IMG/VR virus record: IMGVR_UViG_3300043446_003513
Coordinates: 1-64,000 of that record
Source: a virus
Direction: 5' to 3' (one strand)
Length of the DNA: 64,000 nucleotides
This document shows, piece after piece, positions 3,513-49,871 of the stretch. Numbering within the stretch: the first letter of the stretch is position 1; the number at the start of each line of letters is the position of its first letter. Position numbers and translations under genes: made by a program. The notes beneath the pieces were generated by a model. It had not been told where the DNA came from. It saw nothing but the letters and a program-made list of their open reading frames with translations, and did no database searches.

Positions 3513-5342
3513 TTAAGAACTTTGTACTACTAACCAGTCAACATTATCTATTTTGATCTTTTTTTCATCAATTGTTATAACTGGATCAACTAGTATTACC
3601 GAAGGGCTACCTGTCCATAATTTATAATTTGTCTGTATTTCAGAACCGTCTAGGCTATCTTCGTATAGGATAATATTGTTATAAAGATTTTCTGGCCCTG
3701 AATGCAAAGTATTTGGGTTACAGTTTATATAACAGTCTGCGCCAAATTTGGAGTCTAGAACTAGGACCACATGGTGCATTTGTCCTTCGCTAAATACATT
3801 TGAAATATTTGTCTCTGCAGCTTTTTCTATGCCATTTACATAAATCTTTGAAATTCCAGTTTTTGAAATTGTGCCGTCTGTATCCCATGAATATATTGAT
3901 GTTGGTCCAAACGGATAGCCCGCATAAACCAGGGTGCATTTATTTAAAGATATTGGAGTAAAAAACATTTCAATTGTTTGATACTTTAAACTTATATCTA
4001 TTGTTGATAGAATAAAGCCATCTATACATCTTACCCCATTATTATTGTGCCTTGAAAGAGTTGGATAGTTTAATGTTCCATAACTAATATCTGCTGTTGA
4101 AGATATTGATCCACCTGTAAAATATATTTTTCCTCCGCCATTATCAGAGTATAACTCTTTATTTTTATAAAAGACAATAGAAAGAAATGAAAACTCTGGA
4201 CTATATACCTCTCCATATTTTAATGAACTCATTGTTATTTTAATATAAAGAAATCCAGTTGTTGAGTATGATCCTCTTCTATATTGAGGTATTACTCCGC
4301 CATTATCACATATTTCATATGTTTGTCCATCATCACTTGTTTCTACTTTAATATTAGAATCTCCACGCCATTCTATTTTTGAAGTAGTTCCAATTCCTTC
4401 TGGAACAATAACAAAATCTTCTAAAACAATATCATACCCTTCGGTTAAAGTGTCATAAAATTTTAAACTTTTATTAGATAAGTCATAATAAATATAATTT
4501 GAATTATCACTGTTTATAAATGATTGCAAGGGCTTGTCTGCTGGATAGGTATAAATAAAACTTTCGTACAACTTTCCAGCATTTAAATCAAAAACTTTTC
4601 CGTTATTTTTTTTAGCAACTTGATTTAAATTAATTTGAGTATTGCCATCTATGTAATGAGATAAAATAGTTTGGTTTGTTAATGAGTATCTATAAAGAGC
4701 TACTGCATTAACTATGCATTTTACATCTGGATTAATCTCTAAAGATACTGCTGGATAATCTGATATTGGGGTTCCATAAAATTTAAAATCGTTTGGAAGG
4801 CTTGTTGTTTGTGTAAGCATTCCGTCTACATATAAAGATATACTGTCAACATTATAAACAGCAACAACATGAATTGCTTTTTTTGAATAATTTAAATAAC
4901 TTTTAGTTTCATAATAAGAATAATTATTTGATGAGTAAACCCCAAAAGCTAGGTGCCCTCTATTAACATAAATTACAAATCTGGGATCTACATAAGAATC
5001 TCGAATTATTAAACATTGATCTAACGAAGAAACCTCATTTAATGAAACCCAGAATTCTAAAGAAAATGGATTGTCTGACGTGCTGTATGTTCCAAAAAAT
5101 CCTTCGCTTTCTTTACCCGTGTAATCATTTAGTGGGCTTAATGTAACATAATTAGTTGGAGGATTAATCAATTTTCCTTCTCCGCTAATTGGTACCAAAG
5201 GGGGTAGATTATGAATAAACGATCCTTCATATGTGCCGTGGTTTCCTGCTCCAGAAATATCATATGCTACAGATCCAGAAGTTTCATTTAGAGGCCAAAA
5301 CCCGACTGGGTAGTCTCTCATTACCTTAAGTTGATAAGACAT
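3513..5342 (-). CDS. LamG/concanavalin A-like domain virion protein
   Basis: PVGFWPLNETSGSVAYDISG..NHGTY, FSLEFW, HVVAVY....SLYVDG and VALYRYSL are typical LamG motifs. Confidence 0.75.
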   Translation of the reverse strand: MSYQLKVMRDYPVGFWPLNETSGSVAYDISGAGNHGTYEGSFIHNLPPLVPISGEGKLINPPTNYVTLSPLNDYTGKESEGFFGTYSTSDNPFSLEFWVSLNEVSSLDQCLIIRDSYVDPRFVIYVNRGHLAFGVYSSNNYSYYETKSYLNYSKKAIHVVAVYNVDSISLYVDGMLTQTTSLPNDFKFYGTPISDYPAVSLEINPDVKCIVNAVALYRYSLTNQTILSHYIDGNTQINLNQVAKKNNGKVFDLNAGKLYESFIYTYPADKPLQSFINSDNSNYIYYDLSNKSLKFYDTLTEGYDIVLEDFVIVPEGIGTTSKIEWRGDSNIKVETSDDGQTYEICDNGGVIPQYRRGSYSTTGFLYIKITMSSLKYGEVYSPEFSFLSIVFYKNKELYSDNGGGKIYFTGGSISSTADISYGTLNYPTLSRHNNNGVRCIDGFILSTIDISLKYQTIEMFFTPISLNKCTLVYAGYPFGPTSIYSWDTDGTISKTGISKIYVNGIEKAAETNISNVFSEGQMHHVVLVLDSKFGADCYINCNPNTLHSGPENLYNNIILYEDSLDGSEIQTNYKLWTGSPSVILVDPVITIDEKKIKIDNVDWLVVQSS

Positions 5343-5359: not shown

Positions 5360-5908
5360 CTATCCTTGTACAGTTCCAATTAAATACCTTGTTCCGTGTG
5401 TTATTGGAAGCACTAAATGGTCATATGCATAACAAGCTGGGAAAATGACTATTTGATCTTTTGCTGGTTTTATTTCAATATCAAATCTTGGAAACTGTAT
5501 TTCCCCACCCTCGTAATCATCATTAGGATAGTATAAGGTAGAAGACCTATATGGCTTTTCATCATCTTGATCATCAAAATGCCTAAACATGTGATTATTA
5601 TTTGAATATTTTGCTATCCAAACATAATGTCTTTTAAAGTTTATTATTTTTCTTGGAGTATGAAAATCTAAAAAATAATCTGATTCAATTTTTGAAAATT
5701 TTTTATCAAAATATTCAAAAATTTCTCTATAGCCCTCTTCTCCATCTGGATAAAATGTCATGTGAGAAGGTTCGTTTTCTTGTTCAATCCAATTTATTTT
5801 ACCCTGTTCAACATAATCTAAAATAAACCTCAGTCCATCTTTAAGTTCTGGAGCTATGGCAGAATATATTCCTGGAGCTAAAATTTCAAATTGTTTAAAT
5901 TTTTTCAT
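5360..5908 (-). CDS. 2OG-Fe(II) oxygenase (prolyl 4-hydroxylase-like)
   Basis: HFD, NDDYEGGEIQFP, IFP..Y.YDH.V.P...GTRY. Confidence 0.88.
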   Translation of the reverse strand: MKKFKQFEILAPGIYSAIAPELKDGLRFILDYVEQGKINWIEQENEPSHMTFYPDGEEGYREIFEYFDKKFSKIESDYFLDFHTPRKIINFKRHYVWIAKYSNNNHMFRHFDDQDDEKPYRSSTLYYPNDDYEGGEIQFPRFDIEIKPAKDQIVIFPACYAYDHLVLPITHGTRYLIGTVQG

Positions 5909-5914
5909 ATAGTT

Positions 5915-6505
5915 TTATTCTTTAAATCTAAGATGCAAAACAAGGCAGGATCTTTCTCCTGAAATCAAATCATTAACAGAATGTAGTGTGTGTCCATCAA
6001 AACATACAATGCTACCAGTGCTTGGCTTATAAAACTTTTTATTTTCTTTTACATCTTGATCTACATTATAAAATATAATTTCTCCACCTTCAAAGTTGTC
6101 ATTTAGATAAAGAACTGCTGTATATATTTTCCCACCCTCTCCATACTGATCACAGTGTGGCTCCATGCCTTTAAAAACTTTTTCTTTTGAATTAAGGCAT
6201 TTATAATGCATGGTCTCATATATAATTTCTGAATCTTTAAAATTAAATACATGACACATGTTTTTGCCTATTAAATTAAAAATGTCATATATTAATGAAT
6301 TTTGTAATTCTTTTTTTTCTAAAAAATCAAGCAAGTAAAAAATATCTTCGGTGTAACCCATGCAAATCGAGTTTTCGCCATCCTCTTTGTTAACAAAAAT
6401 TAAACACTGGCCATTGTGATCAATTAAACCTGATTCTTTCATGTAAGAGTCTATATAATTACACATTTCCTTATTAATAAAATTTTCAATTATTTTGGGT
6501 TTCAT
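5915..6505 (-). CDS. 2OG-Fe(II) oxygenase
   Basis: PHCD, YLNDNFEGGEIIF, LHSV, GER. Confidence 0.88.
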   Translation of the reverse strand: MKPKIIENFINKEMCNYIDSYMKESGLIDHNGQCLIFVNKEDGENSICMGYTEDIFYLLDFLEKKELQNSLIYDIFNLIGKNMCHVFNFKDSEIIYETMHYKCLNSKEKVFKGMEPHCDQYGEGGKIYTAVLYLNDNFEGGEIIFYNVDQDVKENKKFYKPSTGSIVCFDGHTLHSVNDLISGERSCLVLHLRFKE

Positions 6506-6562
6506 TAAACCCTCCTTTATTAAATAAATTTAACTATTTAAATTATATCACAAATTTATATT

Positions 6563-7186
6563 TTAAATAATCCAATGAGCGTTATAGATATATTTATTCC
6601 CCGATGTTATAGGAAGCGCCTGATGGATATATGGCTCTTGAGATGGAAACATTACTAAACTACCAGCTTTTGGTTTTAATTTAACATCGTGATTTGGAAA
6701 AACTAATTCTCCACCCTCATAGTCATCGTTTATGTATGTAACCAATGAAAATCTTAAAAATGAATCGCCATCTTGACCGTCATAATGCGGACCCATTCCC
6801 TGGCCAGTATAATATTTTTTTAAAGTAATATGAGAAAGATCTAAATTAATTTCATTTTTATCTGTTCCAGTAACTTCACAGTATCTTGCTGCACACATCT
6901 CTGGAGCCATATATATACTGTTTAAAATATAAAGAGTATTTTTATCTAGAAGATCATCACCTGTAGATAAAGAAAGCCTATCTTTTACAAGATTTTTTCT
7001 ATCTCCGTAGTGATAAGATTTATCATTACTTGCATACCAAGGTTCCCATTTTGGAATTCTAATATAAGTTTTTGGAATTTCATCTAGCTTATTTAAAAGA
7101 TCCAAGAACTCTTTTTCATAACTAATTACATTTTCAAAATAAAAAATACCTTTATTTTCAAACTTCAGGTCAAACATACTATACAT
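6563..7186 (-). CDS. 2OG-Fe(II) oxygenase
   Basis: MGPHYD, YINDDYEGGELVFP, KPKAGSLVMFPS..PYIH, GNKY. Confidence 0.9.
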   Translation of the reverse strand: MYSMFDLKFENKGIFYFENVISYEKEFLDLLNKLDEIPKTYIRIPKWEPWYASNDKSYHYGDRKNLVKDRLSLSTGDDLLDKNTLYILNSIYMAPEMCAARYCEVTGTDKNEINLDLSHITLKKYYTGQGMGPHYDGQDGDSFLRFSLVTYINDDYEGGELVFPNHDVKLKPKAGSLVMFPSQEPYIHQALPITSGNKYIYNAHWII

Positions 7187-7919
7187 CTATGTTTCCTTCT
7201 TTCGCAAGTTCGGCTGGATACTCTCCACCTTTTGGAGAAAGCCTTTTACCAGAAAGCCTTATCTTTTCCCATTCTGCTTGTTCTACTTTTTGTTTTGCCC
7301 TTGTTTCAGCAATCTCTTCAGCCCAAGCATCTCTGGTCTCCTGACTATAAGCTTCTTCTGGACGATCATCCCAAAAAGATCCTATCGTATACCTGTCTCC
7401 CTTTTTAACAACAGATACTTCATGCATATTGTGTCCTCCGCCAGCAAATATCACAAATAATCCTGGCTTTGGTTTAATAGATATTGGGTCATCTTTAAAG
7501 TTTAATTCCCCTCCTTCAAAATCATCATTTAAATAAATAAATCCAGCATATCTGCTTCTTTCAAAAGCACTCGGTTTTCCGTCATAACTATTATCTGAAT
7601 GAAATCCTGCAAAAGCTCCTGGTATCCATTTTTGAGTATGGAAACTAATTTTATGTGCTTCTCCACCTATTAAACTTTCTGCTGCAGACTTAACTCTTTT
7701 TTCAAGTTCTTCAAAAAAATTGCCTGGCAAATTAAATAATGCTAAATCAGGATCGTTTGGATAAGGATAACCAGAAGAATAAGATTCATAAAAGGATATC
7801 GGATGCCAACTAAATTCATTTTTTTGAACTTTGTATTCTAAAACCTTAATTATAGAGTCACATTCTTCTTTAGTTAAAAAATTATCATAGCATATGATAT
7901 CCGCTTTGAGCTTGTTCAT
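7179..7919 (-). CDS. 2OG-Fe(II) oxygenase
   Basis: FHSD, YLNDDFEGGELNF, NMHEV, GDRYT. Confidence 0.9.
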   Translation of the reverse strand: MNKLKADIICYDNFLTKEECDSIIKVLEYKVQKNEFSWHPISFYESYSSGYPYPNDPDLALFNLPGNFFEELEKRVKSAAESLIGGEAHKISFHTQKWIPGAFAGFHSDNSYDGKPSAFERSRYAGFIYLNDDFEGGELNFKDDPISIKPKPGLFVIFAGGGHNMHEVSVVKKGDRYTIGSFWDDRPEEAYSQETRDAWAEEIAETRAKQKVEQAEWEKIRLSGKRLSPKGGEYPAELAKEGNIDV

Positions 7920-8718
7920 GCGTTATCCTTTCTCCATTATGTAGGTAAACCATATTTTTTGGATCTTCTTGATCAATTCTTTCTTCTTCCATTCTTGCCC
8001 ATCTATATGCGCCAAACCTTCTCTGATTGTCTAGCCATTCATCTGAACCTGCATATGGAACCATAACAAAATTTCTAACAAAAAACTTGTATCCGTTTTC
8101 AATTAATTTAACTCCATGATAATACGGTTCTCCAGAAGGAAATATTACAATATCTCCAGCTTTTGGTTTATGGTTTATTAACTTATTATCAACAAAAAAT
8201 TCTATGTCTCCGCCATCATAATCATCATTAATATACATTGTACAGGTAATAAAAAATTTTGGACCAGGCATATCTTTTTGAGAAACAATATAATCTGTAT
8301 GATATTGCATTGTCATTTTATTTTCCATTTTATCTACATTTGGATTATATTTTGAAAAAGAAGAACCACTAAAATATGCATCTTTTGGTAAATCAACATC
8401 ATATTTTTTAACATAATGAGATAAAGATTTTATGTAGGCATCGCTGACAGCTTGTGCAAAATATTTTTCCTCATCATATATCTCACCATATTCTGCTGGA
8501 TCAGAACTTTCTTTATGTTGCGAATACGTTCCAAAAATAGACCATTGATCCCATGTCTTTAAAAAATATTTTCCTTCCGATGAAGCTTCAGATTTTTTCA
8601 TAATTTGATAAAGATTGTCTATGTCTGGAAGAATATTTCTAAAAACAAGAACCCTAGGATATAGTTCTATAACTTCATATTCTGGATTTTCTAAATTAAC
8701 ATCTACTAAATTAATCAT
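7885..8718 (-). CDS. 2OG-Fe(II) oxygenase
   Basis: YHTD, YINDDYDGGDIEF, PYYHGV; start moved to ATG 8718 (ATGA overlap with the upstream stop). Confidence 0.88.
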   Translation of the reverse strand: MINLVDVNLENPEYEVIELYPRVLVFRNILPDIDNLYQIMKKSEASSEGKYFLKTWDQWSIFGTYSQHKESSDPAEYGEIYDEEKYFAQAVSDAYIKSLSHYVKKYDVDLPKDAYFSGSSFSKYNPNVDKMENKMTMQYHTDYIVSQKDMPGPKFFITCTMYINDDYDGGDIEFFVDNKLINHKPKAGDIVIFPSGEPYYHGVKLIENGYKFFVRNFVMVPYAGSDEWLDNQRRFGAYRWARMEEERIDQEDPKNMVYLHNGERITHEQAQSGYHML

Positions 8719-9395
8719 GGCTGTCTTTCTCCCGTATGCCTTAATATCGTCCAAAAAAATGGAGATGTAAATCTATTTCCTGACTTTATTGGCCTTACCC
8801 CGTGAACATAATTTTTATCACCAGGGAAAAAATATGCTGCGCCAGCTTTAGGCTTAAACTCTATTCCATGTTGAGGAAAATATAATTCTCCTCCTTCGTA
8901 GTCATCATTAAAATAAAATAAACCAGCTATATCATAATGAGGAAAACTATTTGGCCTACCTCTTTCTTCGCCAATATGAAACTCTTTGTCCGCATGTGGC
9001 TCTTGTCTTGCTCCAATTGGCCACCGAACAATTGCTGGTCCAGTTTCAATAGCATCGACCTCAAAAAATTCATCTACTTTTGGTTTTAATCTTTTTATCA
9101 TATCATAAATTAAATCTAATATAGTTGGGTCAGATTTAACTAATGAAAGGTAAGTACAAACTCTATCTTTCCAAATATTTGCTTGATATAAAACTAAACC
9201 ATCTTCGTCTATATCGTCTTCAGTTGTATCCCAAATTTTATTATTTAAGGCAAAGTCCGTCAGCTTTTTTCTTTCCTCTTCCGTAAGAAAGTTTTCTATT
9301 TCTACTATATTATTTGAAGAATTTCCAAAAAACCCAGATGGCGTTATTGATTTAGGTCTTTTATCAGTTACATCTTCACCATTAATAATCATCAT
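8715..9395 (-). CDS. 2OG-Fe(II) oxygenase
   Basis: PHAD, YFNDDYEGGELYFP, YVHGV, GNRFT. Confidence 0.9.
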   Translation of the reverse strand: MMIINGEDVTDKRPKSITPSGFFGNSSNNIVEIENFLTEEERKKLTDFALNNKIWDTTEDDIDEDGLVLYQANIWKDRVCTYLSLVKSDPTILDLIYDMIKRLKPKVDEFFEVDAIETGPAIVRWPIGARQEPHADKEFHIGEERGRPNSFPHYDIAGLFYFNDDYEGGELYFPQHGIEFKPKAGAAYFFPGDKNYVHGVRPIKSGNRFTSPFFWTILRHTGERQP

Positions 9396-9424
9396 ATTAT
9401 CTCCTCACATAATAATAGCATATC

Positions 9425-10123
9425 TTATATCTCATTAACCTTTAATTTTATTGATTTAGTTTCATGTTGACCTAATTGGTTTCCTTCATGATCTTTTGCG
9501 TCTCTATAAAAATTTGACCACTTGCCTTCTTGGTTTAATTTTACCATTTCTTCAACATATTTTTTATCTAAAAAATAATTTTCTGGAGCCATTCCTCCCG
9601 ACATCAAATTAATTTCTGAATTATTTATTTCTCCAATAGATATAGGAACTATTGCTGATACTGGTGTATTAGCTTTAATTATAATTTCTTTATTTGGTTT
9701 GGTTATTTTCCAGGCGCAAGGGAATTCTCCTCTAAAAAAAGATGTAGTTATTATTGTGCTAAAACATTGTGCGCCATCAATAAATTGATTTGGAACAGGC
9801 ATCTGAAAAAGACTTACATTTGGATCTGTTTTAAAAACTAAACCAGTGTGAAAACTAATTGTAGCATTTGCTCTTCCAGTATCAACATATTTTTCTCCAG
9901 ACAAAATTTTAACATGGCTATCTGAAGAGTCTGAAATTCCATCCCATATAAAAACAATATCTTCTGGATACGACAAGCCCCACCCAAAAGAGTTGGTTAG
10001 AGTTACTGGAAAACATTTATAGGCATGAGCTTCCCATGTTTCATCCATCCAATCTCTTTTTACTGGAAGATTAGATATTATTGCTGGATTATGTCTAATT
10101 TTATATGCGTCAACTTTATACAT
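9425..10123 (-). CDS. DUF6065-like protein inside the oxygenase operon
   Basis: RDWMD...HAYKCFPVTLTN.FGW signature recalled from the DUF6065 family. Confidence 0.65.
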   Translation of the reverse strand: MYKVDAYKIRHNPAIISNLPVKRDWMDETWEAHAYKCFPVTLTNSFGWGLSYPEDIVFIWDGISDSSDSHVKILSGEKYVDTGRANATISFHTGLVFKTDPNVSLFQMPVPNQFIDGAQCFSTIITTSFFRGEFPCAWKITKPNKEIIIKANTPVSAIVPISIGEINNSEINLMSGGMAPENYFLDKKYVEEMVKLNQEGKWSNFYRDAKDHEGNQLGQHETKSIKLKVNEI

Positions 10124-10775
10124 TTTGTTTCGGCATTATTAGTTTATAGAAATCTTCACTGTGACAATTATCATTATAATCAAGCATTGTGACTATGGAG
10201 TACTTTGTTCCGCTAGCAACTGGCATTGCTTTATGAGAAAATAAATATGTTGATGGGAATATATATAAATCTCCTGCTTCTGGAGTAATTTTTAAATCTA
10301 ATTTTGGAAAATATAATTCTCCGCCCTCATAATCATCGTTTGGATATCCTACTAAAGATACAGTGGCAACATAAGAAAATCCATGATCTGCATGTTCTTC
10401 AAAGTGTTGTCCTGGACCATATTTAATAAAATTCATTGCTTCCCAAAAATCCATTTTTATACTATACATGTTACAGTAATCTAAAACTGCTGGAATTTGA
10501 GCATCATAAGCATCTTGCCAAATAGAATTTAAAACCTTTTGTTTTTCTGAAAGAATTAATGATTTATTTTTATTTAGTTTAAAATCAAAACAATCTCTGT
10601 AGCTTGGACGAGTTTCTCCATAGCCCACAAACGCCTGTTCCCATTTACCAAATGGATCATTTTCTATTGCTTTTTCTATTCTATTAATTAAATCTAATTC
10701 TTTTTTAAAGATGTCTTTATACTTCCATATGCCTAAAAACAATTCTTCTTTTGAAGTCCATGACTGTTGATTCAC
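10116..10775 (-). CDS. 2OG-Fe(II) oxygenase
   Basis: KYGPGQHFEEHAD, NDDYEGGELYFP, FPSTYLFSH, GTKYS. Confidence 0.9.
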   Translation of the reverse strand: MNQQSWTSKEELFLGIWKYKDIFKKELDLINRIEKAIENDPFGKWEQAFVGYGETRPSYRDCFDFKLNKNKSLILSEKQKVLNSIWQDAYDAQIPAVLDYCNMYSIKMDFWEAMNFIKYGPGQHFEEHADHGFSYVATVSLVGYPNDDYEGGELYFPKLDLKITPEAGDLYIFPSTYLFSHKAMPVASGTKYSIVTMLDYNDNCHSEDFYKLIMPKQNV

Positions 10776-10837
10776 AAAACGTCCAATCTCTATGTAGAGA
10801 TTATATAATTATATCCAATGTATGTCAAGATGCCAAA

Positions 10838-12184
10838 TTAACTAATTACTAGGTGATCGCCAGCAATAAACCATTTATTTGGTTCTGTTTTAATGGTGTA
10901 AACATCTTGATCTTCATCGCTAACTGTTATTGTTTCAATTTTGACAAAGTCAATGGAGCCGTTATTTTTAACCGCTAAAGCCTCGTCTCCTATATTAATT
11001 TCAGAAACAAGCACCGAAGTTATTCCGCTATCTTTTTTAATAAATATAGGTTGATTTAAAGAATAGTTTGCAATTTTATTATCATTAAACCAAACAATTT
11101 TTTCTTTTCCATGAGTTGCTTCAGTTACTGTTGTTTCTTCAAACTCTAGATTATTTGCATCTAAAAAGTATTCTTCATCAGAATTACTTGTTAAATTTTT
11201 TGAAGAAATTGTTAAAATATTTTGTCCAACAATAATTTCTTTTGCTAAACAAATTCCATCTTTAGTCAATATTGGAGTTTCCCCGCCAATGCAATAATAT
11301 GGAATTGGTTTTGAAAATCTTGGTGGAGAAAAAAAGGATGGAGGGAAAAAGAATCCTGGTGGAACAAAGAATGCTGGAGGAGAGAAGAACCCTGGAGGGG
11401 CAAAGAACCCTGGAGGGGCAAAGAACCCTGGAGGGGCAAAGAACCCTGGAGGGGCAAAGAACCCTGGAGGGGCAAAGAACCCAGGAGGAGAAAAGAACCC
11501 TGGAGGAGAAAAGAAGCTGGGCGGCAAAGTTGTTACGCTATTAGAAGCCGCTGATGTTATAGAATTTCCGTTAGCGTTAATTGCATAAACAGTATATGTT
11601 TGTGCCGTATTATATTCTTGTGATACAGTAACAGATGTTGAAGCTGTTGGTCCACCACCTGGAGTTCCTCCAGCTAAATTTGTTTTTCCATCTGAAGATG
11701 CCCAAATATATCCAGTAATATTTTTGCCACCAGTTGCTGGAGCTGTCCATGAAACTGTATCAGAATCTACGCCAGCAGTAGCAGTTGGGGCTGCTGGAGT
11801 AGCAGGAACTGTTGTTGCTAATACTGAAGATGATGTTGTGCCGCTTGCGGTTCCACCAATACTGACTGTTTGAACAGTAAACGTGTATGATGTATTAGAG
11901 GCGAGTCCTTGAAAAGTATATGATGTTGTAGATGTACCAGTATTTACTGTATATGTTGAAGGAGTAGATGTAATTATATAAGAGGTTGCCGCTGGAGATG
12001 TAGACGGAAGTGTCCAAGATAGTGTTACGGCTGCGCCAGTTCCCGCTGCAGATGCAGCAGATGTTGTATTGGCGGTTGCCAAATAAGGTCTATTAGTTCC
12101 TACATCTGTTGCCGTTAAAGATGTAACATCTAGTGGAGCGGGCGCTCCAGATCCTTTAATTCCCGTTCTTTTACCAGTAGCCAT
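10838..12184 (-). CDS. FN3-domain protein with (PPxFFx)12 repeat and C-terminal Hint domain
   Basis: Two FN3-like modules (VTLSWTLP..YTFTV; VSWTAPATGG..ITGY..YTVYAIN), a Pro/Phe repeat, then CIGGETPILTKDG...EI.VGQ and VYTIKTEPNKWFIAG Hint-like blocks. Confidence 0.8.
   Translation of the reverse strand: MATGKRTGIKGSGAPAPLDVTSLTATDVGTNRPYLATANTTSAASAAGTGAAVTLSWTLPSTSPAATSYIITSTPSTYTVNTGTSTTSYTFQGLASNTSYTFTVQTVSIGGTASGTTSSSVLATTVPATPAAPTATAGVDSDTVSWTAPATGGKNITGYIWASSDGKTNLAGGTPGGGPTASTSVTVSQEYNTAQTYTVYAINANGNSITSAASNSVTTLPPSFFSPPGFFSPPGFFAPPGFFAPPGFFAPPGFFAPPGFFAPPGFFSPPAFFVPPGFFFPPSFFSPPRFSKPIPYYCIGGETPILTKDGICLAKEIIVGQNILTISSKNLTSNSDEEYFLDANNLEFEETTVTEATHGKEKIVWFNDNKIANYSLNQPIFIKKDSGITSVLVSEINIGDEALAVKNNGSIDFVKIETITVSDEDQDVYTIKTEPNKWFIAGDHLVIS
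11309..11524 (-). repeat. Coding tandem repeat, 12 x 18 bp (PPxFFx)
   Basis: Unit ggcaaagaaccctggagg on the + strand; encodes PPSFFS PPGFFS (PPGFFA)5 PPGFFS PPAFFV PPGFFF PPSFFS PPRFSK. Confidence 0.97.
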
Positions 12185-12218: not shown

Positions 12219-15200
12219 TTATGCGGACAAATCTCCGAGTAATACCCACTCATTTGCAGCTCTTTTAAATAAAGTTGCAGATGACCAGCGATCTCTAAGA
12301 CTTTTTCCTGGTGTAGCATTAACGTTTGCCAAGCCAGAATTTGTGATTGTTACTGCACCAGTATTAATTCTTAATATATCAATAGATGTTCCAACTGGAT
12401 AAGTTAATGAGTTTGTGCCATCTTGAGGAACTGTAATTGTTATCGTTCCAGTAGAATCACAAGTAATCATTTGATCTCTTAAACTTGTTCCGCCATCGTT
12501 GATTCCAAAACTTGCGGTTTTTGCTGTTATTGTTGTTTGAGATGGAACGCCCTCTTTAGATTGTGTGCCATCAGAAAATGTAATGCTTGTTGCAGTTGCT
12601 GCGCCCAAAGTTGGTGTTACTAATGTTGGACTATTTGCAAAAAGAAGTGCTCCAGTTCCAGTTTCATCAGTAAGCGCTGCTGCAAGATTTGCAGATGATG
12701 GCGTTCCAAGAAATGTAGCAACTCCAGTTCCTAGAGATGTAATCCCTGTGCCTCCATTTGCTACTGGTAATGTACCAGTTACACCTGTGGTAAGTGGAAG
12801 ACCAGTTGCATTTGTTAGAGTTCCGCTTGAAGGTGTACCAAGTGCTCCACCATTGACTACTGGAGCGCCAGCAGATCCTACGTTAACTGCAAGAGCAGTT
12901 GCTACGCCAGTTCCAAAACCAGATATACCAGTAGATACTGGAAGTCCTGTTGCATTTGTGAGCGTGGCAGATGAAGGTGTGCCAAGCGCTGGTGTAGTTA
13001 ATGTTGGACTTGTAAGTGTTTTATTTGTCAGAGTTTGTGCTGTATTTAGATCAACAGTTGTAGCAGTATTAATGCTAAATGTATTTCCAGTTAATGTTAA
13101 TCCTGTACCTGCTACATATGTACCACTACCAGAAAATTGAGTAAATTCAATTGCATCTGTACCAATTGTAGTAATGGTATTTGTTTGTACCCAGCCAGTT
13201 TTTCCGTTAACCGTACCGTTTTCAACGAAGATAAAGTCTCCAGCATCTACCTCTGGGGTTGAGTCATAATCAGTTGCTCTTGTTGGAGCTCCAGAAGCAT
13301 TTACTGTATAAACACCATTTTGTGATTTTGTTGTTTGATTCTTAACAAGAATTCTATTGCCTGTTGCAAGAGTAACCCCATCAAGAACGTCACCATTTTC
13401 AACATCTGTCGCAAGTGTGATATTTGCAGTAGTTGCAGCCTTTACAGAATCATGTACGTTGAGACCAGAAGTTGCTGCATCTACATAAGCTTTTGTTGCT
13501 GCATCTTGATCTGCTGTAGGATCTGCAAGATTTGTAATCTTTTGACTGTTCATTGAAAATGAACTAGTAGGTGCAGCAAGATCTGTTACCTTAGATGTAC
13601 GAACTTGTGTATCAAAGTCTGAAATTGTACTTGCTGTTTGTGTGCCAGTATGATTTGCACGTGCAAGAGGGTCTGTGGCAAGTTTGCTGAGAGCAATTGC
13701 TGCTGAAGCATTAATATCAGCATTAACAATTGTCCCATCAGCAATCATAGTAGAAGTAACAGTTCCAGAAGGTAGTGTTACTGTTCCTGTAAATGTTGGA
13801 GAAGCAAGCGGAGCCTTTGCATCAAGAGCAGATTGAGTTGCTGTTGATACTGGCTTGTCTGCATCAGAAGTGTTGTCTACGTTTGCAAGTCCAATCATCG
13901 ACTTTGTAATACCTGAAACGGTACCAGTAAATGTTGGTGATGCAATTGGTGCATAAGTGCTTGACGCTGTAGATGTAGATAGTTTAGAATCAATTTGTGT
14001 TTGAATTGAACTGGTAACTCCGTCAACATAATTAAGTTCTGTTGTACTTAAAGTTGCCCCATCGAGAATATTTAATTCTGCTGTTGAAGCAGTTAATCCG
14101 TCAAGTATATTAATTTCTGATGTGGACGCAGTAACACCATCAAGAAGATTTATTTCAGAAGCCGAAGCTGTTATATCTGAAATATTTGCTGATTGAACAG
14201 TAAGAGTATTATTTAAATATGAAATTGTTTTATTAGTTAAAGTTTGTGTGTCGGATGTTCCAACTATATTGCCTGTAGTGCCATGAGAAGACGTATCTGT
14301 TGCGTGAGTTGAAATTTCATTTCCTACATATGTTTTTGTAGCCAAATTTGCAACATCATCAATTCCATGAACCATTGTACTTGTTTCAGAATGTGTTGTA
14401 AGATCATTATAAGTAACTCTATCATCAATTTGTGATTGAATTGCCGATGTTACTCCATCTAAATAAGAAATTTCTGATGAAGAAACTTGACCTATGCTTG
14501 TGGTATCTGGAAGAGTTACAGTTCCAGTAAATGTTGGAGCTAAAATAGGTGCATAAGTGGTTGATGCTGTAGAAGTATTTAATTTAGAATCAATTTGCGT
14601 TTGAATTGCTGAATAAACGCCACTTAAATAAGAAATTTCGACTGGAGTAACAGATCCTATTGTTGTTGTATTTGGTAAGGTGATATCTCCAGTTAACGTT
14701 GTATTATTTTTTACAGCATAATCTGAAGCTGCACTTGAAATAGAAAGTTTATTATTCAATTGTGTTTGAATTGCTGAAGTAACTCCATTTAAATATTGAA
14801 ATTCAGTATTGCTTACATCTCCTATATGTATTTCATCTCCATATAGTATTCCAAGCTGCATAGTTTCTTTTGTATAGGTTGAAAAATCAACAGTGTTTGT
14901 TGGTTCATTTGTTACACCAGAAAATAACTTCCAAACTCCGTCTGTTGCATCTTTTATAAAACCAGTGTGAGAATATGTGCCAGAAATTGTATGAGATCCA
15001 ATAATGCCTATGTCTACAGTATTAGAATTATTATTTTCTGCCATATAAATAATAGGATTTGTTACCGTTAAAGTTTCTACTGGAACTGTATTATAAGTTC
15101 CATTTACAGTTAAATCTCCATCAACTATTAACGATCCAGCTTGAACTTCTCCAGTAAAAATAGCAGAAGAGGCACCAATTTGGTCTGCCCCAAAACTTCC

Positions 15201-15935
15201 AGATATTGTTACGCTGTCTGATAAATTTACGGTTAGTGTTCCAGCATTATCATTATAAGAAGTATCAATATTATTTCCACCAATAATAGTTGAATTCATT
15301 AAATCTTGTGTTGTTTCTGTATAATCTGAAACACTTGTTGTAGTTATAGAAATACTATTGCTTGAACTATTAATTGTTTTATTTGTTAAAGTTTGATTTC
15401 CGTTTGTTGTAACTAATAGTGAAGTATCTGCTATTCCATGTATGTTTGTTGTGTTTGATTCATGAGACGCAATTAATGAATTAATTTCGCTTGTATTTGT
15501 TAAAGCTTTCCAGTTTGCATTTGTTGAAGCAGGGGAAGATTGAAGAACATAACTTGTTCCATTGTCATTTTGAATTGCAATATCTCCAGGTTGCGCTGTT
15601 AATGCAAGTCTTGCTGTTTGATCTGCAACAGTGTTTACTGTAACTTTAACAAGCGCTGGTAGCTGACTAGCTGGAACTAAACCGTCCGAATCAAGTGAAG
15701 CAACTCCATTTGCTTGTCCAACATCTGCTAACAAAACATAATCTGAAAGTGAATCTCCTAATCCAGTAGGAGTAACATTTGCATAAGGAAGCTCTGTCCA
15801 TGTATCGGAATTATTACCAATTTTAAATTTATTAGTATCGCTCTCAATGCCAACCTCCCCTGCAGCCAAGACTGGATCGACATCTGTCCAATCTGCTGCT
15901 AGACCTCTACGAAGTTGAATTCTTACTGTTGACAT
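12219..15935 (-). CDS. Long tail fibre protein
   Basis: N-terminal IQLRRG.AA.W...[20 protein letters not shown] (Mtd-N/hyaluronidase-type) module; repeated [14 protein letters not shown] and [12 protein letters not shown] fibre motifs. Confidence 0.85.
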
Positions 15936-27797: not shown

Positions 27798-27983
27798 ATG
27801 GATAAAAGATTTAACCCAGAATTAAGAAGAAATGTTGCAGAAAGCATTCCATGCATACACATGAATTCTATGTCTTTGGCTGACAGAACACTAAAAACAA
27901 TTGTTAGATATCTAAAAGATGCTCAAAGCAGAGGGCTTACAACTATTGATCAAGTTTTGAGTGACATGGAGAGGGAAGACTAA
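27798..27983 (+). CDS. Hypothetical protein
   Basis: ORF; start moved to ATG 27798. Confidence 0.5.
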   Translation: MDKRFNPELRRNVAESIPCIHMNSMSLADRTLKTIVRYLKDAQSRGLTTIDQVLSDMERED

Positions 27984-29017
27984 TCGCAATGGTCTTTTCT
28001 GTTATAAACATATAGATCAACAAACTCTTCTATTGGAAATGGCTGTTCGTCATCATCTGAAAAAGTAAATCTATTTTGCTTTGAAATAAGATCATGATTT
28101 CCAGATTTTAAAACATAAATATTTGTATCTTTTTTAAGAATTCTTTGTTCGTCAATTGTTTCCTTGGTGGCAAACAACATGCCACGCCATTCCTTATTTA
28201 AAAACCCATCCTTTTCAATTTCTGCAATTTTTTTCATAAAATCTTCATCAGACAATGAGCTTTCCATATCTGTCCATTCTTGCGGAATTGGGGCTGATAA
28301 AAAATGTCTTACATAATATTTTTTACCTTTTATTGGAAATACAGCGTGGGGAATGTCTGTTCTAAACAATAATCCATCTCCAGCTTCCATTTTATATGTA
28401 ATTGGATCGTCTACATAATAACAAGTCTTTTCGTCTCCAACTTGATTTATATAAGAAGTTTTTTCAGCATTTTCTATATCAATAAACTGAATTTCTCCGC
28501 CTTCATAATCATCGTTAATATAAATATTGTAATTAAATATTTGTGGAGAAGGAGTAATCCATCTTCTTTTATCTAAATGATAATCCATTGATAAAAATTT
28601 TGTTGGATTTGTATTTAAAGATTCTGCAATCAATAAATCTGGATACTGCCACCCTACAATATTTTTTTTATTATCAAAAAATTCTTCAAAATTTGATGGA
28701 ACAGTTTTGCTATCTGCAAATGAATCTACATAATTACTGTCCCATAAATTTTCTTTATAATATTTAATTGCATCCCAAAAAGAATCTGTTGTTTCTTTTA
28801 TAAAATATGCCCCATCAGAGTCAGAGTGCATCCAGGAAGTATCTTCAACAGGGTAAACTTTTGAATAGTAACCCCATGGTTTCCAATTTACCCATGAACT
28901 AAAAAAATCTACTTTTTCTGTTTTACTTTTTTTAATTATTTCATAAAGTTTATTTGGGTTGCTAACAGCATTTTTAATTAAAAGAATTTCTTTTCCTAGT
29001 TCAATGTATTCTTTCAA
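27980..29017 (-). CDS. 2OG-Fe(II) oxygenase
   Basis: YHLD, YINDDYEGGEIQF, PHAV; resembles 7885..8718. Confidence 0.82.
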   Translation of the reverse strand: MKEYIELGKEILLIKNAVSNPNKLYEIIKKSKTEKVDFFSSWVNWKPWGYYSKVYPVEDTSWMHSDSDGAYFIKETTDSFWDAIKYYKENLWDSNYVDSFADSKTVPSNFEEFFDNKKNIVGWQYPDLLIAESLNTNPTKFLSMDYHLDKRRWITPSPQIFNYNIYINDDYEGGEIQFIDIENAEKTSYINQVGDEKTCYYVDDPITYKMEAGDGLLFRTDIPHAVFPIKGKKYYVRHFLSAPIPQEWTDMESSLSDEDFMKKIAEIEKDGFLNKEWRGMLFATKETIDEQRILKKDTNIYVLKSGNHDLISKQNRFTFSDDDEQPFPIEEFVDLYVYNRKDHCD

Positions 29018-29294: not shown

Positions 29295-29435
29295 ATGGGA
29301 AGAGATCATTTTAAAAAAGTATTTTTTTCACCATACTTTCAATCCAACCATTATAAAAATGAAACTCCTGGCGGAAAGATAGAAAAAAAAATCGAGAATT
29401 GGTTTAAAAAATTTTTTAAAAAGGATGAAAAATAA
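29295..29435 (+). CDS. Small basic hypothetical protein (46 aa)
   Basis: RBS aggagg; MGRDHFKKVFFSPYF...; stop overlaps the next ATG. Confidence 0.55.
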   Translation: MGRDHFKKVFFSPYFQSNHYKNETPGGKIEKKIENWFKKFFKKDEK

Positions 29436-30238
29436 TGTTTTATGACAGACCAGACTGTATTAAATTGGCGGAAAAAATATTTTTGTTTAAAAATGCTTTA
29501 CCCAAAGAATTAATTGATCATTTAAATAAAGCATATATGGAAATGGATCAATCTACACTAGAATATGAAGATACTTTAATAGAATGGTATTCAAATAAAG
29601 TTGCTACAGAAATGCCAACTCCTAGAATTCATGAGGCCTGGGAACTTATTAGTGATATTTTATATCCAGAATATATTCTTCACCCTTCAGTAAATGTTTT
29701 AGCTGTAAAGCCAGGGGATGGCGGTATGTTTGTTCACGCAGATAGCCCAGGTCGAGGATGCGAAGATATGCTTACGCAACTTGATGAATTTAGCACATGT
29801 TGCATTATTGATTATGGTTTAGTAATGTATCTTGGAGAATGGACTGGAGGGGCTATATTTTATCCCCAGTTAAATCCAGATGGAACACCTAAGATGCATG
29901 AAAATGTTCAAGAAGGATGTTTTGAATATACTCCAGAAATTGGAGATATAATTATTCATAGTGCTCATTCTCCATATGAACATGGAGTAAGAGAAGTTGA
30001 ATCTGGTACAAGGTTTGCATACTCTAACTTTGTTTTAAGAATGGAAGATAATCCTGGATCATTTTATACTTATAAAACTCCAGAGTATTACGAACAACTT
30101 GGTGAAAAAGAAGATGGATTTTTAAAGAGATGGATTATTCCTTTATACCAGAGCGATGTTTCATATAAGCTCAGAAAAGAATTCGGTAAAGAAATTCCAG
30201 ATCTTCCAACTAAAGATCAGCTATTAAATAATAAATAA
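29435..30238 (+). CDS. 2OG-Fe(II) oxygenase
   Basis: MFVHAD, YLGEWTGGAIFYP, YEHGV, GTRF. Confidence 0.87.
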   Translation: MFYDRPDCIKLAEKIFLFKNALPKELIDHLNKAYMEMDQSTLEYEDTLIEWYSNKVATEMPTPRIHEAWELISDILYPEYILHPSVNVLAVKPGDGGMFVHADSPGRGCEDMLTQLDEFSTCCIIDYGLVMYLGEWTGGAIFYPQLNPDGTPKMHENVQEGCFEYTPEIGDIIIHSAHSPYEHGVREVESGTRFAYSNFVLRMEDNPGSFYTYKTPEYYEQLGEKEDGFLKRWIIPLYQSDVSYKLRKEFGKEIPDLPTKDQLLNNK

Positions 30239-30850: not shown

Positions 30851-31112
30851 CTTCCGTTTCTACATCAAATATATTCTAGTCGACTATAATTTTAGATTAT
30901 ATAAAATGTTATATATATTTTTTATAAGTATATCTGGGGATTTAGATTTTTAGGAAAGCCCCCCTACCCCCCAAGTTTTTTCTTCTTGGAAAGATAGAGA
31001 AAGCTACATCTGGTACATTTGAGTTCCTAGTGTAAGCCCCCACAAACCAAAGTAAGTATAACATTATAAAAATTTTTCTGTCAAACTACTACAAATATTG
31101 TATAATGGTTTT

Positions 31113-31676
31113 ATGCAGCCAACAATAATAAAAAATTTTATTAGTAAAGACACAGCTTATTATTTAAATAATTATTTTAGGCCTTTGGTTGAAATAAATC
31201 CTAATGGTTTACTTAATGTTCCTCTTACTGCTGGAGACAATGGACTTGGATTTTCTTGCAAAGATCCAGCAATAAAAGAATCAAATATTTCACTTGATAT
31301 AGTGACTTTAATTGTTGAAGCAATTGCACATAGGTTTAATTTGCCAAAAAATAGAGTATCAATTAGAAGCTGTAACTATCAAGTGCTGGTTGAAGGTCAA
31401 GAAATTGGTTATCATTCTGATAATCGTGGAGCATATCGAAATAAAATGAAAAACGATGGTTGGTCTGCCCTTCTTTATTTGGATGATCAGTATACTGGTG
31501 GAGAAATTTTGTTCTATGAATTAGATGAAAATGGCAAAGAAATATCTAAATCTTATCACCCCACACCAGGAACATTAATCTATTTTAAAGGCGATGAAGA
31601 ACATTGTCATTCTGTTAATAAAGTGATAAATGGAGAAAGACCAAATCTTATCTTATTTTTTGATGTAAATGATTAA
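31113..31676 (+). CDS. 2OG-Fe(II) oxygenase, leaderless
   Basis: YHSD, YLDDQYTGGEILF, CHSV, GER; TATAAT-N6-ATG at 31113. Confidence 0.87.
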   Translation: MQPTIIKNFISKDTAYYLNNYFRPLVEINPNGLLNVPLTAGDNGLGFSCKDPAIKESNISLDIVTLIVEAIAHRFNLPKNRVSIRSCNYQVLVEGQEIGYHSDNRGAYRNKMKNDGWSALLYLDDQYTGGEILFYELDENGKEISKSYHPTPGTLIYFKGDEEHCHSVNKVINGERPNLILFFDVND

Positions 31677-40454: not shown

Positions 40455-40859
40455 ATGGGAGACAGAGCAAACTTTGGATTTGTGCAGCCTAACGGTCACA
40501 CAATTGTATTGTATGGGCACTGGGCTGGTGAGAATATGCTAGCTAATTTAGCAGATGCAGTTAATGCAGCTCGTCCTCGTTGGGGCGATTCATCATATGC
40601 GACACGTATTGCAATTAGTCAATTAATTGGCAATGAATGGAACGGTGAGCTTGGCTGGGGTTTGGCCGTAGATGAGATTCTAGACAATGAGCACCACATT
40701 GCAATTGTTGATTTTGAACAGCAAATATTTTCTCTTCATCCTGAGGATGAGCACGTCAACAAGGATAACAAGGTTAGGGGAATGCGTAATGAACCTAAAT
40801 TCACCATGGACCTAGATTCATTTGTGAATAAATATGGAGACGTTGTAGTTGGCGTTTGA
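40455..40859 (+). CDS. Early hypothetical protein
   Basis: MGDRAN...LYGHWAG...RWGDSSYATRI. Confidence 0.7.
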   Translation: MGDRANFGFVQPNGHTIVLYGHWAGENMLANLADAVNAARPRWGDSSYATRIAISQLIGNEWNGELGWGLAVDEILDNEHHIAIVDFEQQIFSLHPEDEHVNKDNKVRGMRNEPKFTMDLDSFVNKYGDVVVGV

Positions 40860-40885
40860 CATATTAGCCGAAGTTATTCTATAAT
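40856..40885 (+). promoter_or_regulatory. Consensus SigA-type promoter
   Basis: TTGACA-N18-TATAAT. Confidence 0.8.
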
Positions 40886-45577: not shown

Positions 45578-46135
45578 TCATGGCATAAAATATCCAGGAT
45601 GAGGAAATATATAATCCATATAGGCATATCTAGTTCCAGATAAAACCTCCTGAGTATAATGATTTGTTTCTGGTAAGTAATCAAATATTAATAAATCATT
45701 GTGTTCTGGCTTATATTTAAAGTTTAAGTTAGGAAATACTATTTCCCCTCCAGTAAAATCTCCTAAATACCAAGCTATTTTATAATCTATGAAGCTATTT
45801 GATTCATGTTTTGAAATTTCAGACTTTTGACCAGTTCTCAATCTTATAAAATTAATATGCTGATAGGTCCAATGTGTTGGTGCCAACATGTCTATTAATG
45901 GATCATGAACATCTTGATAACTTATTATATCAACCCCACATTTATCTTCCCAATAGGTTCCTTGTATATCGCCAGACTCATAGTTTTCATGTTCGTACCA
46001 AACACTTTCTGGGTGGGAATTCAATATAGATATATATTTGTCAGCTATCGACAAATCAAAAAAGTTTTTATATAAATATACATGATCATTTAATTTAATT
46101 ATTTTTTGATCTGTCAATAGCCGTGGAGTATTCAT
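45578..46135 (-). CDS. Degenerate 2OG-Fe(II) oxygenase
   Basis: YLGDFTGGEIVFP, NHYT, GTRY, but no clear HxD. Confidence 0.7.
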   Translation of the reverse strand: MNTPRLLTDQKIIKLNDHVYLYKNFFDLSIADKYISILNSHPESVWYEHENYESGDIQGTYWEDKCGVDIISYQDVHDPLIDMLAPTHWTYQHINFIRLRTGQKSEISKHESNSFIDYKIAWYLGDFTGGEIVFPNLNFKYKPEHNDLLIFDYLPETNHYTQEVLSGTRYAYMDYIFPHPGYFMP

Positions 46136-46136
46136 T

Positions 46137-46646
46137 TTAAGCCGATAAGATTTTTGAAATTGCATTTATTGTTGATGCAATTCTTCCAATATCTCTAAGT
46201 TGTTCCGTAGAGTATCCTTCTTGCTTTAAAGTGTCATAATGAGCTTTCACACAAAAATGGCACTTTCCAATTATTGATGCTACTAATGAGTAGGCTTCAA
46301 ACTTGCCCTTGGTAGTTCCGCCATGACTTGAAATAGCATTCATTCTTAATTGAGCTGGAAGACCTTTTAAGTCTTTATCTCCCGCCATCTCAATATACGG
46401 GTACCAAATATTATTTTGAGCCATTAATGATGCAGCAGTAAGAGCGGCATCTCTTTCAGTAACATTATCAGCGCTTGCTAAAATAAAAGTTAAAAGCTTA
46501 CTGTTTCCTGTAGCAAATGCAGCAGAAATAGATAAATACTTTGCTTCTTCTGGATCAATAGAAGATCTATTAATAACTGCATCTAGATTTAACTTAATAT
46601 CTTTAGCGTAATCAGGAATAGACTCTTTTAGTTGATCAACCCACAT
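46137..46646 (-). CDS. ahpD: Alkylhydroperoxidase AhpD
   Basis: IPDYAKDIKLNL, MAQNNIWY, SIIGKCHFCVKAH. Confidence 0.92.
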   Translation of the reverse strand: MWVDQLKESIPDYAKDIKLNLDAVINRSSIDPEEAKYLSISAAFATGNSKLLTFILASADNVTERDAALTAASLMAQNNIWYPYIEMAGDKDLKGLPAQLRMNAISSHGGTTKGKFEAYSLVASIIGKCHFCVKAHYDTLKQEGYSTEQLRDIGRIASTINAISKILSA

Positions 46647-49405: not shown

Positions 49406-49871
49406 TTTTCTCCTTATGTGTTGGCCAAAAATAGTTACATGTATCACAACATACATACCCTATGTTTCTGTAGTCTGCAAACTCTGAATAAAACCAATAA
49501 TGATCTGGATCTTTTTCGTAGAGCCTCCCCTTGTGGCTGTAATGTAACTCTTCTAGTTCTAACCACCAAGGCTTGTCTGATTCAACTCCCCAAAAATTAT
49601 CCCAATATACTTTAATAAACTGATCTCTAGTATTATCCTTATACCCTCTTCTAATTACTTCTTTAATAATTGACTCGTTATAAAGTAGTAACCAGTCTTC
49701 GTGGCCATCCCACATTCTTACTGCTGGGTGATTAGACCAAGCCCCTGATTCATATAACCCAGCTAAAGATTTTAATATTTGAAAATTTTCAATTCGCTGT
49801 TTCATCAATCTTTTTGAATCTAAACTTTGTGCAATAAGATCAAAGTCCGACTCTGGTAAAAATGTCTGCAT
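49389..49871 (-). CDS. Pyrimidine-dimer DNA glycosylase-like protein (MSMEG_6728 type)
   Basis: MQTFLP, LD.KRL.KQR.E..QIL, W.NHPAVRMW.G, H.SH...L..KDP.HY. Confidence 0.82.
   Translation of the reverse strand: MQTFLPESDFDLIAQSLDSKRLMKQRIENFQILKSLAGLYESGAWSNHPAVRMWDGHEDWLLLYNESIIKEVIRRGYKDNTRDQFIKVYWDNFWGVESDKPWWLELEELHYSHKGRLYEKDPDHYWFYSEFADYRNIGYVCCDTCNYFWPTHKEKNDTSN

Follow-up and report, generated by a model that had tools for sequence, protein, structure and literature searches.

Among the closest described systems is the tandem dioxygenase array gp41–gp54 of the cyanophage Syn9, which Iyer, Abhiman, de Souza and Aravind identified in silico in 2010 and for which they proposed a role in secondary-metabolite synthesis (PMC2938197). 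In the same study, bacterial collagen-like and tail-collar proteins encoded beside dioxygenases and sulfotransferases were predicted to be hydroxylated and then sulfated (PMC2938197). The cyanophage S-SCSM1 carries 24 genes for 2-oxoglutarate (2OG)-Fe(II) oxygenases, the viral function of which was described as uninvestigated (PMC9602691). The many genes of this type in aquatic phages are usually labelled 'auxiliary metabolic genes'. The present analysis concerns positions 5,360 to 12,184 of a stretch of 64,000 nucleotides (hereafter the window), which represents positions 1–64,000 of the virus record IMGVR_UViG_3300043446_003513; the whole record has 106,679 bp with direct terminal repeats and belongs to an uncultured phage of ~107 kb. 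The segment carries the gene P0001, encoding a protein with FN3 modules, a repetitive proline- and phenylalanine-rich (Pro/Phe) tract and a C-terminal Hint domain, followed downstream on the same strand by seven oxygenase genes of the family PF13640 and one DUF6065 gene, all of which had been reported in a preliminary description of this DNA and were found again at the same positions. Judged from sequence and gene order, the segment may be a virion-protein tailoring module in the fibre region, in which the oxygenases would hydroxylate the Pro/Phe tail and the Hint cap would then be removed; we give this reading a probability of roughly 0.45.

The locus resembles the Syn9 array in that divergent dioxygenases stand in tandem beside a dUTPase-fold protein with a conserved cysteine (here seven oxygenases, and Cys37 of the DUF6065 protein), in that Syn9 gp43 is homologous to X249, the sister family of DUF6065 presented below (hhalign 96%, E 4e-9), and in that the array comes directly after the fibre genes in both phages (gp32–39 in Syn9). 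An enzyme array with a dUTPase-fold partner is an already known kind of phage neighbourhood, tandem dioxygenase arrays with such a partner having been described in 2010; the repeat as candidate substrate was not part of that description. What is new against the searched literature is the recurrent tight pairing of the array with a Pro/Phe polymer on fibre-region proteins, which are often Hint-capped. Tryptophan halogenases and a JmjC protein (MINA/No66-like) are encoded inside the Syn9 array and neither occurs among the nine genes here, whereas the present array consists of PF13640 enzymes throughout and is accompanied by a Pro/Phe-repeat gene and, in related phages, by genes for a sulfotransferase and an AspH-like protein. 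No Pro-rich tract was found in Syn9 gp32–gp40, gp43 and gp44 (at most 6 Pro per 30 residues). Between its fibre genes and its array, Syn9 (L242, 20000–50000) carries the Gly-rich, Cys-containing gp36 and gp38 ('tail fiber assembly'), which may be low-complexity counterparts of the Pro/Phe proteins as targets.

In the chlorovirus PBCV-1, too, the virus encodes both a PF13640-type enzyme and the tandem Pro-rich repeats on which it probably acts, and this prolyl 4-hydroxylase (P4H) is said to hydroxylate (Pro-Ala-Pro-Lys)n-type peptides, in work of Eriksson et al. from 1999. However, PBCV-1 is a eukaryotic giant virus with a single enzyme and charged Pro-Ala-Pro-Lys repeats, and a Hint domain, a DUF6065 partner and a battery of paralogues are missing from it. 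The P4H of Bacillus anthracis (3ITQ, 5HV0, 5IAX) is the best solved sequence relative of the first oxygenase of the block (A) and among the best for the second (B). It binds and hydroxylates (Pro-Pro-Gly)n peptides, and the commonest unit of the tract here starts with Pro-Pro-Gly; on the other hand, it is a cellular enzyme that aligns over ~100 residues only and partners Gly-X-Y sequences, a pattern which the tract does not have. The C-terminal domain of P0001 is comparable to the bacterial intein-like (BIL) domain 2LWY and to Hedgehog-type Hint domains in its profile match, in the invariant first Cys at the junction and in a C-terminal placement that allows N-terminal cleavage only. BIL domains occur in variable surface proteins. 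In contrast to them, the domain of P0001 has Gln in block B, follows a Pro/Phe polymer and belongs to a group that is gained and lost freely and includes one subtype without His-Asn. The bacterial operons of Iyer et al. 2010 share with this locus a repetitive structural protein beside hydroxylases and a sulfotransferase (the latter in relatives of this phage), but their substrates are Gly-rich or collagen-like, secreted and cellular, and the window itself has no sulfotransferase.

P0001 (10838–12184, minus strand) encodes 448 amino acids and has homologues in ~65 loci. The two FN3 modules proposed earlier were recovered with different support: the first (residues 48–113) scores 48.7 bits, above the Pfam threshold, while the second FN3-like module (residues ~139–214) stays below it (20.1 bits, E 7.6e-4; cut-off 25). 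The Pro/Phe tract (residues 221–292; 11309–11524, minus strand) consists of 12 hexapeptide units, in the order PPSFFS, PPGFFS, five exact PPGFFA, PPGFFS, PPAFFV, PPGFFF, PPSFFS and PPRFSK, and is followed by PIPYY and then directly by Cys298, exactly as first counted. At the DNA level, Tandem Repeats Finder reported an 18-bp period with 9.3 copies and 90% matches (11348–11515) as well as a 54-bp period (11321–11529). In relatives, the composition of the repeat is kept and its register is not, with the forms PPxFFx, PPFF, PPHF/PPYF and PFF. A collagen triple helix was considered for the tract and rejected: with G, A, S, V, F or K at each third position, Gly is possible in alternate triplets only, Pfam Collagen gave no match, and period-4 PPFF variants stand in for the period-6 units in relatives. 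A word-based search with the tract, limited by its low complexity, returned 19 matches, all of them FN3-bearing relatives. A look-up of clusters by exact sequence yielded no named entry. Many genomes encode a second, fibre-like protein of 725–830 amino acids with the repeat subtype and terminal motif of the FN3 protein, and the 5-mer cosine similarity of the two repeat-bearing proteins is 0.74 within genomes and 0.02 between them. The repeat-bearing genes of relatives are often followed by a Cys-rich DUF6171 gene of ~79 amino acids (CxxC...CxxCGC...C) and a second open reading frame (ORF) of 79 amino acids (L008:3714-5039; L010:2146-2617; L033:3129-3362).

The oxygenase block, all of it on the minus strand, begins with oxygenase A (10116–10775, 219 amino acids, 48.3 bits) and the DUF6065 gene, and continues with oxygenases B (8715–9395, 226 amino acids, 33 bits), C (7885–8754, 289 amino acids, 36.7 bits), D (7179–7919, 246 amino acids, 39.1 bits), E (6563–7186, 207 amino acids, 50.5 bits), F (5915–6505, 196 amino acids, 42.4 bits) and G (5360–5908, 182 amino acids, 39.6 bits). 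With 33.0–50.5 bits, all seven ORFs lie above the curated Pfam cut-off of 27 bits by which PF13640 membership was decided. Each retains the iron-binding HxD...H motif and, after a conserved Gly near the C-terminus, the R/K expected to contact the C5 carboxylate of 2-oxoglutarate, which are the catalytic residues of collagen-type prolyl hydroxylases. When the 17 paralogues of the genome are aligned, conservation reaches ≥80% at H, D and the distal H. The motifs noted earlier in the seven ORFs are thereby confirmed. The block oxygenases are mutually 18–30% identical. Orthologues of A, C, D and E were found in 85, 74, 75 and 77 ORFs of relatives, respectively, and B is the most conserved member, with a median identity of 77% across relatives. 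G is confined to the nearest relatives (five orthologous ORFs in L001, L004 and L006). F occurs, among the sampled genomes, in this one only; no orthologue was found in the examined loci of relatives, and its nearest paralogues in the genome lie at 31098 and 48032 (24–32% identity).

Four junctions in the block overlap, in agreement with the earlier description, and the block is a translationally coupled operon. A consensus sigma-70-type promoter, TTGACA-17-TATAAT (10800–10828, minus strand, 12/12 match), is located within the 62 bp that separate P0001 from the gene for oxygenase A and is one of five perfect TTGACA-16/18-TATAAT promoters in 106.7 kb (the others at 40856–40885, 54851–54880, 62489–62518 and G000:65969-65997). 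Of 51 distinct relatives, ~20 likewise have a TTGACA box at about −51 relative to gene A. Because of the promoter in the gap and the recurring box, the oxygenases are regarded as a transcription unit of their own.

Profile searches against solved structures matched oxygenase A to the B. anthracis P4H 3ITQ (E 1.3e-7) and the PBCV-1 P4H 5C5T (E 3e-3), and oxygenase B to human P3H1 (E 3e-6) and the B. anthracis P4H (E 8e-6). By these profiles, the nearest relatives of A and B are prolyl hydroxylases of the collagen type, although PiuC-type members, which have no assigned substrate, score nearly as well. Residues 16–24 of oxygenase B, S-I/V-T-P-S-G-F-F-G, are invariant in 12 of 12 aligned orthologues but for the Ile/Val exchange. 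This SxTPSGFFG segment resembles the PP(S/G)FF unit and may be a pseudo-substrate, a self-recognition segment or a coincidence.

The search of viral contigs with the DUF6065 profile gave 506 related stretches, 80 of which were compared. In 46 of the 47 informative loci (those with at least 3 kb of DNA upstream of the block), an ORF with a Pro/Phe repeat lies ≤4.5 kb upstream of the block, and in the 47th it lies further up. The reverse search, for viral-contig DNA encoding PPFFPPFFPP, returned at least 120 stretches; among the 80 of these that were examined, most matches are members of this same lineage in which the block is present. Repeat gene and block are thus linked in both search directions, which supports this part of the preliminary description. 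The expected co-occurrence came out differently for the two parts of the repeat gene: blocks without a Hint domain were found in relatives, while among the 47 informative loci no block without a repeat gene was found.

The typical order in relatives is fibre gene, FN3-FN3-repeat gene, optional genes, A, DUF6065 (one to three copies), optional X249, B, C, D and E. Each of the oxygenases A–E has a one-to-one orthologue in relatives, and their order does not change: 44 loci have the complete series A B C D E, and A-DUF6065-B-C-D-E is the core order throughout the lineage. In the sub-lineage L010–L014, a DUF6817/HD-domain gene and a weakly scoring extra 2OG oxygenase lie between B and C (L010:12049-12489). 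In many relatives, the repeat gene and A are separated precisely by genes for a sulfotransferase (PF03567) and for a protein resembling Asp/Asn beta-hydroxylase (PF05118).

Two further genomes carry the pairing in other arrangements. In G006 (GC content 0.48), the fibre gene and a 163-amino-acid FN3-repeat gene are followed directly by a B-like oxygenase, and 3–10 kb further down by an A-like oxygenase, four additional oxygenase genes and a DUF6065 gene (31% identity); this locus is the same module, rearranged. G007 (88-kb contig, GC content 0.39) was compared by whole-contig tblastn, as a portal search of G005–G007, which gave no match, is uninformative on fragments. It shares only 8 non-oxygenase ORFs with this genome and no portal, capsid or fibre ORF. 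The one PF13640 gene of G007 is found ~5 kb downstream of the repeat gene of this contig, and the interval contains DUF6171, a pair of X249 genes and genes for a sulfotransferase, an AspH-like cupin and a methyltransferase. G007 is the closest thing to an independent recurrence of the pairing.

The same gene order could also be read as that of a small-molecule or metabolic module, which would make a secondary metabolite or shift the host 2-oxoglutarate and succinate pools and would have no virion protein as substrate. Five anciently diverged enzymes in fixed order resemble a pathway, and sulfotransferase and methyltransferase genes are also found in natural-product clusters. Moreover, the Syn9 array, with the same dUTPase-fold partner, was proposed to serve secondary metabolism (PMC2938197), and the 'auxiliary metabolic genes' reading of cyanophage oxygenases is summarised in PMC9602691. 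Nevertheless, we consider this explanation unlikely. No non-ribosomal peptide synthetase, polyketide synthase, ATP-grasp or halogenase gene was seen among the block genes or their variants, the nearest solved relatives of the enzymes act on peptides, and the block always stands among fibre genes, next to a low-complexity protein. The fusion partner of bacterial DUF6065 proteins, a JmjC/Cupin_8 domain, speaks against it as well.

The DUF6065 protein itself (9425–10123, minus strand, 232 amino acids, invariant Cys37) matches PF19541 with 109.6 bits against a cut-off of 26.6. Its AlphaFold2 model (predicted local distance difference test, pLDDT, 70.6) gave in VIA a Z of 9.2 and a root-mean-square deviation of 2.5 over 120 aligned residues, the 22 highest-ranking rows being dUTPases or dCTP deaminases without exception, and the top Foldseek matches were all dUTPases (E ~3e-3). 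The modelled fold is dUTPase-like, which describes the fold only and not membership of the enzyme family. A role as an eighth oxygenase or a cupin was excluded by this predicted fold. X249 is an unannotated 240-amino-acid protein encoded after DUF6065 in the period-4 lineages and also present in G007. The two families are distant homologues (hhalign 85%, E 7e-6), and the X249 model (pLDDT 87.6) has a dUTPase-like fold with Z 8.6 to the same set of structures. The profiles of DUF6065 and X249 gave no meaningful match to PDB sequences, including those of dUTPases. X249 keeps a G-I-I-D-x-D motif, which we take to resemble dUTPase motif III and which is absent from DUF6065. The presence of X249 shows a trend with repeat period that is confounded by phylogeny.

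These folds raise the question of whether nucleotides or DNA are the target of the module; in that case, nucleotide would be bound by the proteins with the dUTPase fold, and the oxygenases would oxidise a base or a nucleotide-linked group. We hold this to be very improbable in spite of the two dUTPase-like folds and the X249 motif, as DUF6065 lacks that motif and the block contains no kinase or DNA-binding gene. To our knowledge, PF13640 is not a family of nucleic-acid oxygenases, those being AlkB and TET/JBP. The bacterial fusions of DUF6065 also argue against such a role. In bacterial loci, 9 of ~30 DUF6065 homologues are fused to a C-terminal Cupin_8/JmjC domain (L114:7941-9563; L100:7920-9638; further L090, L095, L096, L098, L109, L115 and L120; from Sphingomonas and others, mostly Alphaproteobacteria). 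The JmjC/Cupin_8 family mostly acts on proteins, and the fusions tie the DUF6065 family to protein-type dioxygenases. They came to light by reading the bacterial loci, as a word-based search for longer forms of DUF6065 revealed no fusions. No PF13640 neighbours were found in the bacterial DUF6065 loci, and the term 'DUF6065' appears in no paper of the searched literature.

The Hint domain makes up the C-terminal 151 amino acids of P0001 (10841–11293, minus strand), starting at Cys298 and ending in ...GDHLVIS without a terminal His-Asn. It was identified by profile evidence only. A profile of 23 homologues (A2) matched the bacterial intein-like domain 2LWY in the PDB with E 4e-7 and inteins overall with E 2e-4 to 3e-2 (RadA, Cdc21 and PolII at 2e-4 to 2e-3), while the single sequence found inteins at about E 1e-3 and stayed below the Pfam cut-offs for Intein_splicing (19.6 bits, cut-off 35.8) and Hint (15.7 bits, cut-off 29.7). 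Cys1 is one of four invariant columns in the 23 homologues, which are 19–70% identical. The domain has been freely gained and lost: some homologues end directly after the repeat, others have a tail rich in Cys, and others again a Hint domain of either of two subtypes, so that Hint is optional in relatives. The second subtype ends in ...VVHN plus 1–6 residues. The Cys-rich tail (...CGICCLYGPCEYGCGPCDFWCDD) takes the place of the Hint domain in the repeat proteins of some relatives. Mentions of Hint domains found in phage papers (phiCbK, CBB) refer to ordinary inteins in terminases.

The preliminary description had compared the layout with clusters for ribosomally synthesised and post-translationally modified peptides (RiPPs). 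On such a reading, the repeat would serve as the core peptide and, once tailored, would be set free or cyclised by way of the Hint thioester to give a free bioactive peptide. This part did not survive the comparison, and we regard such a product as extremely improbable. The order of substrate gene and enzyme genes, the candidate thioester-forming Cys after the tract and the Cys-rich tails of some relatives would fit a RiPP-like system. But the precursor would be a 448-amino-acid FN3 protein of the fibre region, with no protease or transporter family among the nine genes of the segment, and neither an exporter nor a leader peptide or an N-terminal protease site is present. Many homologues end after the repeat without a Hint domain, and the tract is joined to FN3 modules; relatives have it on the fibre-like proteins of 725–830 amino acids as well. 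Furthermore, Hint cleavage would free the Hint domain and leave the repeat on the FN3 part. The glycosyltransferase at 24653, also proposed to take part, was assigned to the phage backbone because it is 48% identical to that of LukeCage, a phage without PF13640 genes.

Several findings weigh against the reading of the segment as a tailoring module for the Pro/Phe tail. The genome encodes 17 PF13640-type paralogues, which make up about one tenth of it, seven of them in the block and ten dispersed (894–1532, 27980–29017, 29435–30238, 31098–31676, 45578–46165, 48032–48709 and 49871–50455 in the window; G000:64527-65114, 69810-70691 and 70688-71656 beyond it); the ten are mutually 13–33% identical, and one lies between the portal and capsid genes. 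There are other candidate substrates, namely the collagen-like S74 fibre of relatives and the Pro-rich PA14 protein of this genome. In L151, from a close relative (L151:3-7076; portal 77% identical), a repeat-Hint gene stands directly before the LamG and portal genes with no block between them, but this contig has just 7.3 kb and the block may therefore sit elsewhere in the L151 genome. Since the operon has its own promoter, co-expression with the repeat gene is not required. Much of the pairing is explained by inherited gene order, as the loci come mostly from one broad phage lineage. Genomes with more prolines also tend to have more oxygenases (rho 0.61, n=24), but a single clade accounts for this trend, which carries no correction for phylogeny. 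Block B of the P0001 Hint domain reads S-L-N-Q and not T-x-x-H (in the 23 homologues it is mostly S/T-x-x-Q, with His in three only), and the terminal Asn needed for C-terminal cleavage or splicing is missing; with this Gln and without a terminal His-Asn, self-cleavage of this domain is putative, and only N-terminal cleavage is conceivable. Finally, the arrays of cyanophages are similar but have no Pro/Phe tracts (PMC2938197; PMC9602691).

A number of these findings would be accounted for if the oxygenases modified other proteins, such as the collagen-like S74 fibre, the LamG protein, the long fibre or the PA14 protein, or else host translation factors or ribosomal proteins, and if adjacency to the repeat gene were no more than inherited order. 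Known PF13640 members include EF-Tu and ribosomal-protein prolyl hydroxylases, which fits host targets. The separate promoter, the ten paralogues elsewhere, including the one between portal and capsid genes, the L151 repeat gene without an adjoining block and the equivalent Syn9 array, which follows fibre genes in the absence of a Pro-rich tract, can all be counted for this explanation, as can the collagen-like fibre itself. This protein of ~370–400 amino acids, with short Gly-X-Y runs and a Peptidase_S74 domain, is encoded right after the block in most relatives (L027:14361-15518); the order past E is often this fibre with its S74 chaperone, then LamG, a small gene and the portal. The collagen-like gene is, however, absent from this genome and from its closest relative L001, both of which keep the block and the repeat gene. 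In addition, the sole PF13640 gene of G007 sits in the repeat cassette, and the B-like oxygenase of G006 has moved directly behind the repeat gene. We therefore consider other proteins as the targets doubtful, with a chance that deserves to be taken seriously.

If the Pro/Phe tail is the substrate, the oxygenases would, during infection, hydroxylate its prolines and possibly other residues, separate paralogues taking separate positions or carbon atoms, with the DUF6065 protein as a non-catalytic or accessory partner. The modification would solubilise the very hydrophobic tail and stiffen it as a polyproline-II rod. In the Hint domain, an N-to-S acyl shift at Tyr297–Cys298 would be followed by removal of the domain, either by hydrolysis or by transfer of the tail C-terminus, and the mature protein would then end as the Hint-less homologues do. 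The product would be a modified fibre-associated appendage and not a released peptide. A further-reaching version, which we think improbable, sees in the tail a new virion material: at least five oxygenases and a dUTPase-fold adaptor would hydroxylate both prolines, perhaps also Phe, in every unit, with sulfation and methylation following in relatives, and the Hint thioester, instead of being simply hydrolysed, would ligate the tail covalently to another virion protein or to a component of the host envelope as an adhesive anchor similar to mussel glue or extensin.

The surroundings of the segment were compared with those in cultured phages. Among 50,697 cultured-phage records, no match was obtained with megablast of the segment or with tblastn of P0001 or DUF6065. 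The portal was the only query with cultured relatives, being 58% identical to that of Streptomyces BE-type siphoviruses, e.g., LukeCage. The two phages share the backbone order glycosyltransferase, ribonucleotide reductase (RNR), (LysM protein), LamG-like gp46, gp47 and portal, and LukeCage has no PF13640 gene and no such block in its annotated RNR–portal region. According to this comparison, the fibre genes, the repeat gene and the oxygenase block form a ~17-kb insertion into the backbone. Directly upstream of P0001 lies a fibre gene (12219–15935, minus strand, 1238 amino acids) with Pfam Mtd_N at residues 6–41 and matches to tail-fibre and head-decoration families of PHROG, and this gene also precedes the repeat gene in relatives. 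At the other end, the block is closed by a gene for a LamG/concanavalin-like protein (3513–5342, minus strand, 609 amino acids; Laminin_G_3, 52.5 bits; homologous to LukeCage gp46, E 3e-12), which is followed by a 109-amino-acid gene and the portal in all relatives.

Elsewhere in the window (56223–60386, minus strand), genes for a ferritin-like protein (59925–60386), a CHAP protein (59302–59925) and a JmjC protein (58661–59251) are followed by one for a 729-amino-acid PA14 protein (56223–58412), whose stalk of ~150 amino acids is extremely Pro-rich, with 23 Pro in 40 residues. The JmjC and PA14 proteins may be a second oxygenase–substrate pair. With 18 iron-dependent oxygenases encoded in the same genome, the ferritin may have a part in supplying iron.

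The pairing provides the oxygenases with a concrete candidate substrate that is cheap to test, e.g., as (PPGFFA)n peptides; a negative outcome would point to the collagen-like fibre or to host targets instead. If the proposed role is true, the enzymes would be orthogonal peptide hydroxylases which, together with a new C-terminal Hint cassette, would be available for protein engineering. DUF6065 and its Syn9 gp43-like sister family would obtain their first functions, and hydroxyproline-type protein chemistry would be present in bacteriophages. A class of phage genes would then move from 'host metabolism' to 'virion protein chemistry'.

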